This document shows, one piece after another, positions 2 through 43,371 of a stretch of DNA of 64,000 nucleotides. How positions within the stretch are numbered: the stretch's first letter is position 1; every line of letters begins with the position of its first letter. Position numbers and translations under genes: made by a program. This DNA comes from Phage NC-G, in sequence record MK310184; one strand, given 5' to 3'. Under the pieces are notes generated by a model, which saw only the letters and a program-made list of their open reading frames with translations, did no database searches and was not told the origin of the DNA.

Positions 2-1291
2 GCAACTTTAAAAGCACGTTTAGATATTCCTACTCAGGCAACAGAAACTTATGTAGGTATTACCCGTTATGCTACTAACGCTGAAGCTATAGCAGGCACA
101 GAGCCCCAGGCTGCAATCGTAGCAACCTCTTTGAAAGCGGTAATGGATTATACATTTGAGAACCGTTTATCAACAGAGAACGCCACAGGCGTTATCAAGA
201 TTTCAACTACACCTGCTGCATTAGCTGGTACCGATGATACCACAGCAATGACCCCACTTAAAGTATCTCAAGCAATTGGTGCGGCCACAGCAGCGTTACC
301 GGTTTATTCTACGGCAACGACAACAAATGAAGGTTTAGTTCGTTTAGCGACTAATGCTGAAGTTGGTAATGGAAATCTTTCTGTAGGTATCGCTATTTCT
401 CCTGCAGGGCTGGCAACTTTAACTTCCACCGAATCAAGAAGTGGTATTATTAAACTCGCAGGTTGGGATATGGTATCTAATGGTACTGACCACACTGCCG
501 CTGTTACTCCGGCCTCTTTGCTAGCTCGTACAGGTAATACAGGACGAATTGGCTTAGTGCGTTTAACTACTACAGTAGGTCAAGGCGATGGTAATACGGC
601 GCTGGCTTATAATGCTAACGTTATTTCTACTTCAGGCGGTGAAATATGGGGTACTTTAAACGTTAATGGTGCATTACGTCGTAATGGTGTTGATGTTGTT
701 ACCCACGACCAATTATCAGATAGCGTTCCGGTAGGTACTATTTGTATGTGGGGCGGCCATGAAGGTAATATCCCTGGCAAATGGCGGGCTTGTGTAGGCG
801 GAACTTATACTGGTGGTGCATATTTAAATGCTGTTGGTGGACGTTGGGGATGGTGGGGTGCTATTCCAGATTTCCGTGGATTATATCCTCGCGGTGCTAA
901 CATGGTTGGTGGATATTCTGAAGGTGAAGTTAACCCACATATTGCCGGTAACCGAGGAGAAGACGGTAAAGGTAAAGCCCGTTTAGGTAACGGTGTAGGT
1001 TCGTTCCCACAATCTTCTGTTCAAGCCCAAGCATTACGTTATCATAAACATGCCGGTGGTTTTGGTGAACATGATAACTATGGCGCTTTTGGTAACACCG
1101 CTAACTCTGGATATGTCGGTACTCGTAAAGGACTTGACTGGGATAACCGTAGTTATTATACTAACGAAGGTTTTGAGACCACTGAACCTTGGAACCGTGA
1201 CGGCCATACCACACTGAATAGTGAAGGACTTATTGCAAATGAAACACGTCCTTGGACAATGTCCGTTCTTTTTATTATTAAAGTAGAATAA
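2..1291 (+). CDS. 12: Short tail fiber protein gp12, 5'-truncated by window edge (C-terminal ~430 aa)
   Basis: Reading frame open from position 2; repeated ...ATNAE.G.. / GLVRLAT motifs typical of gp12 shaft; C-terminal receptor-binding region with His-rich HKHAGGFGEHD; lies immediately upstream of wac as in T4. Confidence 0.85.
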   Translation, partial: ATLKARLDIPTQATETYVGITRYATNAEAIAGTEPQAAIVATSLKAVMDYTFENRLSTENATGVIKISTTPAALAGTDDTTAMTPLKVSQAIGAATAALPVYSTATTTNEGLVRLATNAEVGNGNLSVGIAISPAGLATLTSTESRSGIIKLAGWDMVSNGTDHTAAVTPASLLARTGNTGRIGLVRLTTTVGQGDGNTALAYNANVISTSGGEIWGTLNVNGALRRNGVDVVTHDQLSDSVPVGTICMWGGHEGNIPGKWRACVGGTYTGGAYLNAVGGRWGWWGAIPDFRGLYPRGANMVGGYSEGEVNPHIAGNRGEDGKGKARLGNGVGSFPQSSVQAQALRYHKHAGGFGEHDNYGAFGNTANSGYVGTRKGLDWDNRSYYTNEGFETTEPWNRDGHTTLNSEGLIANETRPWTMSVLFIIKVE

Positions 1292-41683: not shown

Positions 41684-42016
41684 TTATTTCACAACATTCC
41701 AATTTTTCATATCAAGTTTACCAACTTTTTTCATCTGAGCAATCAGACGTTCAGCACGTGTACGGGCATTAACGTAATAGAATTCACCAATTTTGTTTTC
41801 TTCGATACGACCAGTAATTACAGTTTTCAGTTCATAAATCCAACCTGTAAAGAAGTTGTGAAGCTCGATGGTAAATGTGAAATCAGTACCCATACCTTCA
41901 GTTGTTTCAACTTCGATGATATCACCTTCAACTGCAGTCAGGACCCACATGGTTTCTTGATATTCACCGTTGAAACATTTAGCTTTAACAGATGCATTCA
42001 GGTTTACAGTTTTCAT
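41684..42016 (-). CDS. Hypothetical protein (110 aa)
   Basis: ORF with the same ~40-nt leader as gene 41245-41610 and an early-promoter cassette upstream. Confidence 0.5.
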   Translation of the reverse strand: MKTVNLNASVKAKCFNGEYQETMWVLTAVEGDIIEVETTEGMGTDFTFTIELHNFFTGWIYELKTVITGRIEENKIGEFYYVNARTRAERLIAQMKKVGKLDMKNWNVVK

Positions 42017-42068
42017 TTTATTCTCCAGTTTGTTTTCGTATTATTTGGTACATGTCTATAGTATCATG
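42017..42068 (-). promoter_or_regulatory. Early-promoter cassette variant (GTATAC -35, TACTAT -10)
   Basis: Minus strand GGTATAC-N17-TACTATAGACATGTACC plus conserved leader. Confidence 0.5.
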
Positions 42069-42115
42069 CCTACCGGAGATGTATACCCTTTTTTAAAGAT
42101 TTAGAAACAAAAATG

Positions 42116-42133
42116 GGACTCCGAAGAGTCCCA
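42116..42133 (-). terminator. Hairpin terminator (GGGACUC-UUCG-GAGUCCC) after small basic gene
   Basis: gggactccgaagagtccc palindrome immediately 3' of ORF 42138-42299 on the minus strand. Confidence 0.65.
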
Positions 42134-42137
42134 TAAC

Positions 42138-42299
42138 TTATGCAATAACTTTACCGAAGCAAGCAGCATCTGCACGCAATACTGCACGAGCACGAGCTTG
42201 AAGCTTATCAACTACCTGATTGATACGCTTGTTAGACGCACGCTTGTAACCAGCGCGTTTAGAGGTTCCGTCAACTACTTTAACTTCTTTCTTAGCCAT
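42138..42299 (-). CDS. Small basic protein (53 aa), possible nucleic-acid binding
   Basis: Hand-translated MAKKEVKVVDGTSKRAGYKRASNKRINQVVDKLQARARAVLRADAACFGKVIA; below ORF-track cutoff; K/R-rich. Confidence 0.45.
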   Translation of the reverse strand: MAKKEVKVVDGTSKRAGYKRASNKRINQVVDKLQARARAVLRADAACFGKVIA

Positions 42300-42652
42300 T
42301 TTTAAATCTCTTAAATTAGGATGCAGGACTTATTGGCGTTGCCTGCGCAAGCCCTCAAGGGGAACATAGGTTTCGGATATTTAACGACAGGATAACCATA
42401 AACCTCGTCATCATAGCTCTTATCTGTTGCACACCGTTAGCTTAAAGGTTCCGGGTTCGATTTCTCGAGGATAAGATATATACTGATGGATATATAGGCC
42501 TTGAGGCGTACTCCCGATTGGCCATCACCTCGGGGTAGCATGCACTTGCCGCTATAAAATAACATTCAAGAGGTACACCGTAAAACTGTCGGGGTCTTAA
42601 AACTATAATGATTCGCAAATCATTAATCAGACAGTTCGACGGCTCCTCGATT

Positions 42653-42901
42653 TTACTTCAGGGTAATAATAAAATGACGTACTGCTTTACGAGCTGCTGA
42701 AGCCAAAGGCTTAGCATATTTCAGTTCATCTTTTGCTTCCAGTTCAGCAGCCAGAGTAGCCTGAGCAGGATTCAGATGTTTGAAATAACGCAGGATTTCC
42801 AGTGCTTCGGCTTCAACATCAATAGATGCGCCATAGTTTTCGTGACCGTTGTTCCAAGCGTTGCGTTGCAGTTCAAGAGCGTGATTCAGATGTTTGTTCA
42901 T
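42653..42901 (-). CDS. rIII: rIII lysis-inhibition accessory protein
   Basis: Start at internal ATG gives 82 aa, the T4 rIII length; position between 31 and the 30.x array. Confidence 0.75.
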   Translation of the reverse strand: MNKHLNHALELQRNAWNNGHENYGASIDVEAEALEILRYFKHLNPAQATLAAELEAKDELKYAKPLASAARKAVRHFIITLK

Positions 42902-43039
42902 TTTAAATTCTCGATTCGAGATAAAGATTGGTGGACACGTTCTTCTGAATTTCACTTCCTTTCGGCAAGTCTCTCAGTTGTAGTCCACCGCTTAGAATTG
43001 TTCGGTTAACTTATTATTCCGACACCCAATTCATATTAT

Positions 43040-43047
43040 TATTTATA
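43040..43047 (-). promoter_or_regulatory. Late promoter (minus-strand TATAAATA) between gene 31 and rIII
   Basis: Plus-strand tatttata = minus-strand TATAAATA just 3' of gene 31 stop. Confidence 0.5.
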
Positions 43048-43371
43048 TCACTTATAAAGGCACGGAATAGCTTTATAGTGGCAGGTAACGAATTTCTGTT
43101 TAATTTCTTTAGGCTGTTTAATACCCAATGCAACTAAAGGATGAGGCACGTTAGCAATCTTACCAACAGGAAGTGGAGTCAAATCACCTACTTCACAAAA
43201 ACCTTCAGGGACATCAGGCCCTACAGAATAAATTTCACAAAGTTCAGGGATTTCACCTTGATGAAGTTTGCCAATAACGATACCAGATGCAGTAGTTTCT
43301 TCATCACCAGCTTGTTTTGGTTCGGAAACGAGAATAACATATTCTCCGACCGCTTTAATAGGAAGTTCCAT
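43048..43371 (-). CDS. 31: Co-chaperonin gp31 (GroES analog for capsid folding)
   Basis: [22 protein letters not shown]...[26 protein letters not shown]...[32 protein letters not shown] matches remembered T4 gp31. Confidence 0.95.

Follow-up and report, generated by a model that had tools for sequence, protein, structure and literature searches.

The rIII-30.9 locus

This study concerns a window of 64,000 nucleotides from Phage NC-G (MK310184), in which the locus of interest is that of a Dhakavirus (JS98/JS10-like), a T4-type phage; positions 42100-42950 are 98-99% identical to CLB_P2, JS10, and JS98. Every gene at this locus is on the minus strand, and in that direction the features are as follows.

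43048-43371, minus strand: gene 31
43047-43040, minus strand: late-promoter motif TATAAATA, just downstream of gene 31
42653-42901, minus strand: rIII (PHROG 1457, E 5.6e-43)
42300-42652: rIII-30.9 gap, 353 bases
42138-42299, minus strand: 30.9 (PHROG 1427, E 6.5e-26)
42134-42113, minus strand: intrinsic terminator hairpin, 9 pairs followed by TTTTGTTTCT
41684-42016, minus strand: 30.8 (Pfam Phage_30_8)

Matches to the 30.9 protein are confined to families of unknown function. An earlier note on this DNA, made from the sequence alone, had placed a late promoter near gene 31 and a terminator hairpin at 42116-42133, and both are found there on the minus strand, the hairpin with one pair of limits slightly wider. 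The modules of the gap would be transcribed on the minus strand, jointly with rIII and 30.9, from this late promoter, and read-through of upstream transcripts probably supplies further transcription of the gap.

Gaps of approximately 200-400 bases occur at the same place in T4, KP179, Merlin, Muldoon, KMB17, EcS1, COW86c, and CF-SP2, and that of RB32 is only about 80 bases. By sensitive blastn the gap is conserved, in differing parts, in about 1000 phage records, which together with the covariation of its core goes well beyond chance; the gap as a whole has a thermodynamic z-score of only -1.9. The earlier note had described all 353 bases as one candidate structured RNA. This description holds for the central 147 bases, where covariation extends to a closing helix (P0), but not for the gap as a unit, which is instead made up, mosaic-like, of five or more modules that have been shuffled independently. 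The modules of Phage NC-G, read 5' to 3' on the minus strand, are the following.

42562-42652, minus strand: M1, a long hairpin with imperfect pairing, immediately after the rIII stop (stem approximately 42648-42570), with GGAG in its 5' strand
42411-42557, minus strand: M2, complete domain of about 147 nt, a closed four-way junction
42364-42414, minus strand: M3, a probable H-type pseudoknot, GAUGACGAGG...GGUUAUCC UGUCGUU...CCGAAACC
42348-42365, minus strand: H, a small GC hairpin GUUCCCCUUGAGGGCUUG, CCCC-loop-GGGG
42347-42319, minus strand: M4b, hairpin GCAGG CAACGCCAAUAAGU CCUGC (thermodynamic fold)
42312-42308, minus strand: ribosome-binding site of 30.9, AAGAG, after M4b

Coding potential and searches for known RNAs

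As had been stated before, the gap has no meaningful ORF, the longest being 58 aa (with a TTG start) and 42 aa, and no conserved coding frame was found among the homologous versions in relatives. Nearly every version of M2 carries one to four stop codons per frame in all six frames. Versions differ in length by -3, +1, +5, +7, +9, or +10 nt, with the differences located in loops; the pattern of substitution is that of compensatory change in helices and not of synonymous change. The mini-ORFs that have been annotated in the gap show no conservation between phages.

Three checks had been proposed together with the earlier note, of which the scans for tRNAs and for Rfam families gave neither a tRNA nor an Rfam 15 family, and the alignment to relatives revealed compensatory base changes in the helices of M2. 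ARAGORN predicts no tRNA gene in the entire 64,000-nt window, in keeping with an unsuccessful attempt to fold the gap into a cloverleaf, and the Rfam tRNA and tmRNA models have no match at E<=10. Rfam 15 has no match at E<=10 over 41900-43100; when 42405-42562 (158 nt) was searched alone, two noise matches were the only ones obtained (E 3-4, approximately 8 bits, on a C-box-like AUGAUGA), and the five homologous loci searched have no match at gathering level.

Architecture of M2

The structure of M2 was derived from a first alignment (A1) of 22 distinct copies, and RNAalifold alone recovers most of it. A covariance model was built, followed by a model-based alignment (A2) with 24 distinct rows. 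The P0-P6 fold is conserved as an RNA domain on the minus-strand transcript, and its parts are given here with their positions in Phage NC-G.

42417-42551, minus strand: M2 core, 135 nt, CGGCAAGUGCAUG...GCUAACGGUGUGCAACAGAUAAGAG
42552-42557 with 42411-42416, minus strand: P0, closing helix, 5-8 bp across contexts
42550-42548 with 42499-42497, minus strand: P1, GGC/GCC
42506-42539, minus strand: P2, bulged stem-loop (5' strand 42539-42528, 3' strand 42521-42506) with a conserved bulged A
42477-42496, minus strand: P3, 7-bp hairpin UAUAUAU CCAUCA GUAUAUA
42418-42476, minus strand: P4 arm, in which P4 (42476-42470 with 42424-42418) encloses P5 and P6
42468-42457, minus strand: P5, hairpin with a loop mostly of GNRA type
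42456-42452 with 42436-42431, minus strand: P6, with a largely invariant 15-nt loop, GGAMCC...GCUAA

The junction has no linkers, its helices follow in the order P0, P1/P2, P3, and P4, and P4 branches into P5 and P6. P1 and P2 together form a single arm, whose internal loop is asymmetric (AAGKGCAU opposite CUNNNG), and P6 is followed by the invariant junction GUGCAAC. In EcS1 the P6 loop is enlarged by an inserted 10-nt hairpin. Across the six clades of M2 described below, about 50 unpaired nucleotides never vary, while the helices drift by compensatory change; the notable invariant stretches are GGCAAGKGCAU, GGCCUAU, ACCYGGAMCC, and GCUAACRGUGUGCAAC. A candidate UGCA/UGCA contact of the 5' tail falls in invariant bases, and a GGCC loop-loop pseudoknot or kissing-dimer contact is not conserved in JC221, Olmo, or EcS1. 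There may be an extra pair between positions 8 and 51 of M2, which changes from U·A to G·U, with one exception.

Two inverted repeats and a T-loop-like motif had been pointed out in the gap. The repeat ATATATAC/GATATATA is real and corresponds to P3, with 42496-42490 paired with 42483-42477. The second, GGCCTTGAGG/CCTCGGGG, has only four complementary bases, and the conserved helix there is instead CCCGA/UCGGG, within P2; the GAGG/CCUC pairing has no covariation support and is broken in Muldoon and JC221, so it was rejected in favor of P2. The motif GGTTCGATT is indeed present, on the plus strand at 42454-42462, but its identity as a T-loop does not survive: it is the complement of covarying stems, comprising the P6 5' strand, the P5 3' strand, and two bases of the P5 loop, and this region varies by compensatory changes (UCGA, UCGG, UCAG, UGG). 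A tRNA-like reading of the region was rejected because there is no cloverleaf and because the motif is on the wrong strand and is itself a covarying stem.

Covariation and strand

Standard pairs occupy 97.9% of 910 cells in the 24 rows, compared with 24.7-43.8% when the 3' partners are slid by 1-3 columns, and both-sided changes occur in 19 of 38 pairs, compared with 1-7 in the slid controls. In the shuffle control, 0 of 500 reached the observed value on any measure, a result that is inflated by the relatedness of the sequences; the sample represents approximately six clades of one phage family. Both sides have changed in six of the ten pairs of P2a/b (for example, CCCGA/UCGGG to CUCUA/UAGAG, and GCUAC/GUA(C)GC to GACAC/GUG(C)UC), in three of seven in P3 (UAUACAU/GUGUAUA, UAUUCAU/GUGAAUA, UAUGUA/UACAUA), in five of seven in P4, and in all four in P5. 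P6 has a single event only, C·G to U·A in the Olmo clade, and P1 is invariant, so that there is no covariation to score.

Because the G·U pairs, found in P2c in nine sequences and in P3 in 19, become A·C mismatches if read on the plus strand, the M2 RNA is the minus-strand transcript. The U·G closing pair of P3 is likewise a standard pair on the minus strand only, and the minus strand is also the direction of all the genes neighboring M2.

The closing helix was assessed over 21 distinct, otherwise unrelated pairs of flanks, in which 136 of 168 cells are paired in register, compared with 38-75 when slid. Positions 1·135 to -4·139 are paired almost without exception, with two to five standard pair types each. 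The helix is UUAUAG/CUAUGA in Phage NC-G and CUUAUAG/CUAUAAG in slur08, and in EcS1, JC221, and Olmo it is 8 bp long. Because the bases that flank the 135-nt core pair although they are unrelated between contexts, the complete element is placed at 42411-42557. M2 thus has both compensatory changes beyond those of the controls and strand-specific G·U pairs, the features by which structured non-coding RNAs are generally recognized.

Distribution and conservation

The M2 model finds exactly one copy in the 64-kb window (42416-42551, minus strand, 165 bits) and recovers all known copies at 100-168 bits; it finds nothing in the two T4 regions searched, the rIII-30.9 locus and the tRNA/rnaC/rnaD region. 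M2 is present in about 400 GenBank phage records, all of them T4-like, whose hosts include Escherichia, Shigella, Klebsiella, Enterobacter, Citrobacter, Serratia, Yersinia, Salmonella, Erwinia, and Cronobacter. There are six clades, all with the same architecture.

Clade 1: E. coli-phage type, identical in Dhakavirus, Gaprivervirus, and some Tequatrovirus
Clade 2: Klebsiella/Citrobacter type
Clade 3: Serratia type
Clade 4: Enterobacter/Erwinia type
Clade 5: EcS1
Clade 6: Pseudotevenvirus (JC221, Olmo)

In IMG/VR, M2 is present at six of 15 rIII loci, and the rIII loci of distant Aeh1-like phages of 233 kb and 221 kb are without it. Pattern scans of IMG/VR and JGI metagenomes returned the same six clades only, and the matches that also held the rest of M2 were all on T4-like contigs. 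Matches to only one of the two patterns, 5' or 3', were discarded as chance, being in coding regions of unrelated high-GC phages. Outside phages, M2 has no blastn match at E<=1 in 5,426 complete E. coli genomes, and of two pattern scans over the genomes of 185,579 bacterial and archaeal species, one per species, one gave no match and the other a single chance match, which scores 3.6 bits with the M2 model. The distribution is phage-only, and M2 as a mimic of a host RNA was rejected on this absence from E. coli and from the species genomes. T4 itself has no M2, and M2 is therefore accessory, with T4 and many relatives thriving without it.

M2 is 95-100% identical across phages in which rIII is only 74-86% identical. 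Relative to slur08 and UPEC07, M2 is 100% identical and rIII is 86% and 80% identical, respectively; relative to KP179 and Merlin, the values are 95-96% for M2, 74-75% for rIII, and 64-72% for 30.9. Identity so far above that of rIII suggests very strong purifying selection, recent horizontal exchange, or both.

Genomic contexts and the other modules

Module layouts were determined by reading copies 5' to 3' on the minus strand and mapping the pieces by blastn.

Phage NC-G: M1, M2, M3, H, M4b
T4: M0, M1, M3, H, M4b; no M2
RB32: M3, H, M4b only
KP179: M3, M0, M2, H, different leader
Muldoon: M3, M2, H
KMB17: H, M2, M3

The modules M0, M2, M3, H, and LH (long-hairpin) thus occur at differing positions and loci in different phages, and genera differ in where M2 stands with respect to M3, M0, and H. 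M2 can be present or absent between very close relatives. In T4 the flanks are the same and M2 is cleanly absent together with P0, the junction there reading GAAUGU|GA|AUGAUG, with rIII, 30.9, and the other modules kept; in PSD9 the position of M2 is taken by an unrelated stretch of about 50 nt. In Pseudotevenvirus (JC221 and Olmo) M2 is at a second site, downstream of uvsY.-2 in the uvsY-uvsW region and converging on uvsW; after it come the H hairpin (with M0 first in JC221), more hairpins, and a bidirectional terminator, but no conserved ORF. M2 is about 81% identical between JC221 and Olmo, and their flanks cannot be aligned.

The absence from T4, the variable module order, and the second site in Pseudotevenvirus show that M2 is autonomous and not a mere leader of 30.9. 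The earlier proposal of a long 5' leader for 30.9 fits at most the 3' modules beside the ribosome-binding site of 30.9; it does not fit the core RNA, because T4 keeps 30.9 without M2 and the M2 of Pseudotevenvirus has no conserved ORF after it. A role for 30.9 as the dedicated protein partner of M2 was rejected on similar grounds, as each occurs without the other: 30.9 in T4, and M2 in Pseudotevenvirus, where no 30.9 homologue is nearby.

No promoter or terminator belonging to M2 was found, the promoter scan having covered 42300-42652 on both strands; a discrete, stable M2 RNA is for this reason an assumption. M0 and the sequence GGGGCTTGACA of KMB17 superficially resemble a -35 box, but neither has a -10 box at a workable spacing.

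The assignments of M1, M3, H, and M4b come from folding and sequence reading and are less secure than that of M2. The fold of M1 is thermodynamic and its sequence is 98-100% identical in T4, slur08, and PSD9, with one compensatory change (CUGUC/GACAG to CUGUU/AACAG) in PSD9; T4 has M1, and Salmonella phage CF-SP2 has a shortened version of it. For M3, an H-type pseudoknot is probable from changes read by eye: stem 1 goes from GACG/UGUC to GGCG/UGCC in L023 and to GUGG/CCAC in KP179, and stem 2 from GUUGGUU/AACCAAC to GUAGGUU/AACCUUC. The position of M3 is not fixed, and it is upstream of M2 in KP179 and Muldoon. H is near M2 in almost every context, 3' of it in KP179, Muldoon, JC221, and Olmo and 5' of it in KMB17, and T4 has H without M2; the H loop is variable (UUGA, UAU, UUUAU, UUGU), with the C-run and G-run kept. 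M4b is conserved in T4, RB32, and PSD9, and a different leader module is found in KP179, Merlin, and CF-SP2. Together with AAGAG, M4b (42300-42347) appears to be the true proximal leader of 30.9, an assignment less secure than that of M2. Like M2, the modules M1, M3, H, and M4b appear to be shuffled between intergenic sites, and they are probably simpler cis-acting hairpin or pseudoknot cassettes for mRNA processing, stability, or translation.

Comparison with known RNAs and cassettes

To our knowledge, the only recognized non-tRNA RNAs of T4-type phages are rnaC and rnaD. These RNAs (species 1 and 2) are approximately 120-140 nt, co-transcribed with their neighbors, processed, and of unknown function, and their annotation was confirmed in the T4 tRNA cluster. 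M2 resembles them as a phage-encoded non-coding RNA of similar size in T4-type phages; however, it has no sequence or model similarity to them, is at another locus, and is absent from T4, and rnaC ends in a tRNA-like acceptor/T-arm that M2 does not have. With no match of the M2 model in the rnaC/rnaD locus and sequences that are visibly unrelated, homology was rejected.

Compared with tRNA, M2 has the same number of helices, four, around one junction, and the 3' strand of P4 runs directly into the 3' strand of P0 as the T-arm runs into the acceptor stem. Unlike tRNA, it has no junction linkers, D-loop or T-loop sequences, anticodon-like 7-nt loop, or CCA, its arms are far longer, P4 is branched, and both ARAGORN and the Rfam tRNA models are negative. 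In the four-way-junction form of the hairpin ribozyme, loops in adjacent arms dock. M2 likewise has a perfect four-way junction and two adjacent arms with conserved, potentially docking loops, but these loops have no sequence similarity to those of the ribozyme and the Rfam hairpin model has no match.

The PeSLs of T4-type phages are mobile cassettes with a regulatory role (Arbiol et al. 2010, PMC2839356; Comeau et al. 2014, PMC4122927), in which a terminator-type stem-loop is joined to an early sigma-70-type promoter, TTGACA/TTTACW-N17-TATAAT/TAYWAT (PMC4122927). The gap modules are similar in being short, conserved, intergenic non-coding cassettes that recur at several sites with insertion, deletion, and replacement of modules. 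They differ in having no promoter, since no promoter site is present at 42300-42652 on either strand, and M2 differs further as a 147-nt multi-helix RNA with covariation in seven helices.

GOLLD, ROOL, and the motifs in catalogues of viral RNAs are phage-enriched RNAs with complex folds that were recognized by covariation and have no known biochemical function (PMC12286853, PMC10690425). M2 is like GOLLD, ROOL, and the catalogue classes in its complex fold, its recognition by covariation, and its presence in phage genomes; unlike GOLLD and ROOL, it is much smaller, has no such match in Rfam 15, and is restricted to enterobacterial T4-like phages. The literature that was searched has no paper with the M2 sequence or describing an RNA at the rIII-30.9 locus, and M2 may be present, unnamed, in a 2023 catalogue of over 10,000 viral RNA motifs. 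M2 is a real and well-supported class of structured RNA, apparently undescribed, in a heavily studied phage family.

Possible functions of M2

The reading favored here, with a probability of roughly 0.45 that includes the structural claim, is that M2 is a processed, stable, trans-acting non-coding RNA that binds a conserved partner. Most likely, a cut close to the base of P0 would free M2 from the polycistronic transcript, and the resulting small RNA would be stable and accumulate. A protein or RNA conserved across the Enterobacteriaceae hosts or these phages would then be bound by the invariant loops and junctions of M2, which would act as a scaffold, sponge, or decoy and not as a regulator of 30.9. 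A trans-acting RNA is favored because M2 has its own sealing helix, occurs in two unrelated contexts, and has no constant downstream platform or gene, and because its unpaired bases are invariant while its helices drift.

A bolder reading is possible but doubtful: M2 might represent an undescribed, phage-only class of functional RNA, either a new ribozyme or a sponge or decoy that neutralizes a host factor, spread horizontally as a cassette. That host factor could conceivably be, for example, an RNA-targeting or nucleotide-signaling defense component conserved across Enterobacteriaceae, and, with similar reserve, the spread might be that of a self-contained cassette among co-infecting T4-like phages.

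M2 could instead be a cis-acting element of the mRNA that carries it, which we consider rather unlikely, although it is the best of the alternatives. It might be a determinant of processing or stability, such as a folded block that sets 3' or 5' ends after endonuclease cleavage, or a ligand- or protein-responsive regulator of neighbors such as rIII or 30.9. In every case M2 points in the same direction as the genes on either side; it is inside a polycistronic unit without its own promoter or terminator, and is found among leader-like modules (M3, H, M4b, LH) that are swapped between the 5' leaders of small genes. A closing helix with a junction is typical of aptamer domains, and by analogy the design of M2 may be called aptamer-like; a conserved, helix-closed domain is, however, common to many RNAs that are not riboswitches. 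A riboswitch would also have a constant expression platform and a regulated downstream gene, and M2 has neither: P0 is followed by M3 in Phage NC-G, H in KP179, M0 in JC221, and unrelated sequence in Olmo, KMB17 has H upstream of M2 instead, and Pseudotevenvirus has no downstream gene to regulate. In addition, rIII and 30.9 are expressed in T4 without M2, and 50 invariant unpaired bases far exceed what a nuclease block would need.

By analogy with known ribozymes, M2 might be a new ribozyme whose self-cleavage cuts the rIII-30.9 (or uvsY) transcript, with an active site formed by docking of the P1/P2 internal loop against the conserved P4/P6 junction. The size, closed domain, perfect four-way junction, two arms with invariant loops, covarying helices, and intergenic place in a phage polycistronic transcript would all suit such an activity. 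Nevertheless, for the 158-nt query no Rfam ribozyme matches at E<=10, including hairpin, twister-sister, hammerhead, HDV-like, pistol, and hatchet, and there is no recognizable cleavage-site motif, which makes a ribozyme improbable.

Conservation at the level of DNA, with M2 as a PeSL-like recombination cassette or protein-binding DNA site and the RNA fold incidental, is very unlikely. The variable order and position of the modules and the presence or absence of M2 between very close relatives would agree with it, identical M2 in phages with diverged flanks implies horizontal exchange, and PeSL-mediated shuffling has been documented in T4-type phages (PMC2839356, PMC4122927). However, compensatory changes in seven helices and G·U pairs on one strand indicate selection on RNA (or single-strand) folding rather than on the sequence of duplex DNA, and no sigma-70-type promoter is in or beside the modules. 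H is a C-run-loop-G-run and not the G(n)-loop-C(n) stem with TTGACA-N17-TATAAT of a PeSL, and while recombination accounts for spread, it does not account for invariant loops.

The idea of a decayed gene, whether a pseudogene of a tRNA or stable RNA or what is left of a small-protein gene, which the earlier note had raised and which could point to the T-loop-like GGTTCGATT on the plus strand and to the ORFs of 35-60 aa called here by some annotators, is scarcely tenable given the negative ARAGORN result, a motif that is a covarying stem on the other strand, stops in all six frames of nearly every version, indels in loops, compensatory substitutions in helices, annotated ORFs that are not conserved between phages, and a constraint on M2 that is stronger than that on its neighboring genes, the opposite of decay.

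Implications for T4-type phages

T4-type phages serve as the reference system for the molecular biology of phages, and phage therapy makes wide use of them, among them many Klebsiella, Enterobacter, and E. coli isolates. M2 is kept more faithfully than proteins in approximately 400 relatives and is lacking in T4, which would explain why it was missed by classical genetics. T4 is also the phage with published transcriptomes. As a small RNA with natural deletion variants in phages of genetically easy hosts, M2 is tractable. If it binds a host or phage factor, then a layer of RNA would be added to host takeover or counter-defense; if it is catalytic, then it would be a new ribozyme class. The exchange of portable RNA modules (M0, M1, M3, H, LH) between loci would extend the PeSL idea to cassettes of RNA structure.

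There is also a consequence for annotation practice, as spurious small ORFs are currently called across the gap. Curated records leave the gap unannotated, automatic pipelines insert non-conserved mini-ORFs (some of 35-60 aa), and in some records a spurious small ORF in the gap is labeled as a glycogen branching enzyme.

A hairpin module between gene 31 and rIII

LH, a long hairpin, is a second portable RNA module, and its position relative to the late promoter is as follows.

Within the gene 31-rIII gap, window 42902-43047, minus strand: LH (GGUGGAC-UACAAC...CGAAAG...GAAGAACGUG-UCCACC)
43047-43040: late promoter TATAAATA, with LH situated between this promoter and rIII

The closing stem covaries, being GGUGGAC/GUCCACC in the window, GGUAGUC/GACUACC in T4, and GGGAGC/GCUCCC in KP179. 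In both KP179 and Merlin, LH makes up the leader of 30.9, and the 31-rIII gap of KP179 carries a different hairpin in place of LH.

RNA modules between uvsY.-2 and uvsW

In Pseudotevenvirus, a convincing ORF is absent over approximately 350-800 nt between uvsY.-2 and uvsW (approximately 350 nt in Olmo), in the following stretches, each numbered within its own locus.

L012 about 800-1640: uvsY.-2-uvsW stretch of Yersinia phage JC221
L034 1484-1830: uvsY.-2-uvsW stretch of Klebsiella phage Olmo

In JC221 the structured RNA M2 is followed by the modules M0 (GGUGAGUCGCUACCUUAGUGCG) and H (GUACCCUUUGGGG), then by more hairpins and a bidirectional terminator. The region resembles an island of RNA modules at a second locus. 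JC221_170, JC221_171, Olmo_16, and Olmo_17, which are annotated here as small CDSs, overlap these RNA modules and are probably spurious.

Other features around rIII, 30.9, and 30.8

Shigella phage PSD9 (Dhakavirus wg01), a close relative, has an unrelated insert exactly at the M2 position; this insert may be a further cassette.

L010 about 816-868, minus strand: insert of approximately 50 nt, AUUUUGUACUAUCACGCGUCAGAAAAAGGUUAUCUGUCUAAGUCGUGGUUGGU

A mini-ORF inside the non-coding gap is labeled 1,4-alpha-glucan branching enzyme in the GenBank records of AV111, AV113, AV117, and EAWsc9; this label is a propagated annotation error. Every copy of the module M3 (window 42364-42414 and homologues) opens with the C-box/k-turn-like string (G)UAUGAUG, which accounts for the only two Rfam matches, both non-significant, to archaeal C/D sRNAs; the resemblance is probably coincidental.

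GGAG, the motif cleaved by the T4 RegB endoribonuclease, is present directly 3' of rIII both in M1 (UCGAGGAGCC; window 42562-42652) and in T4 M0 (UGGAGAUUC; L004 901-929), and these are candidate RegB sites. Activation of RegB via ribosomal protein S1 is reportedly inhibited by the RIII protein (PMC9409239).

Between 30.9 and 30.8, a transcription unit may newly start, because the gap contains a weak sigma-70-like site; such a start would match the terminator-plus-promoter layout of PeSL, the promoter/stem-loop cassette of T4-type phages.

42134-42113: 30.9 terminator
42017-42137: gap of approximately 120 nt from the 30.9 terminator to the 30.8 start
42067-42040, minus strand: weak sigma-70-like site inside this gap
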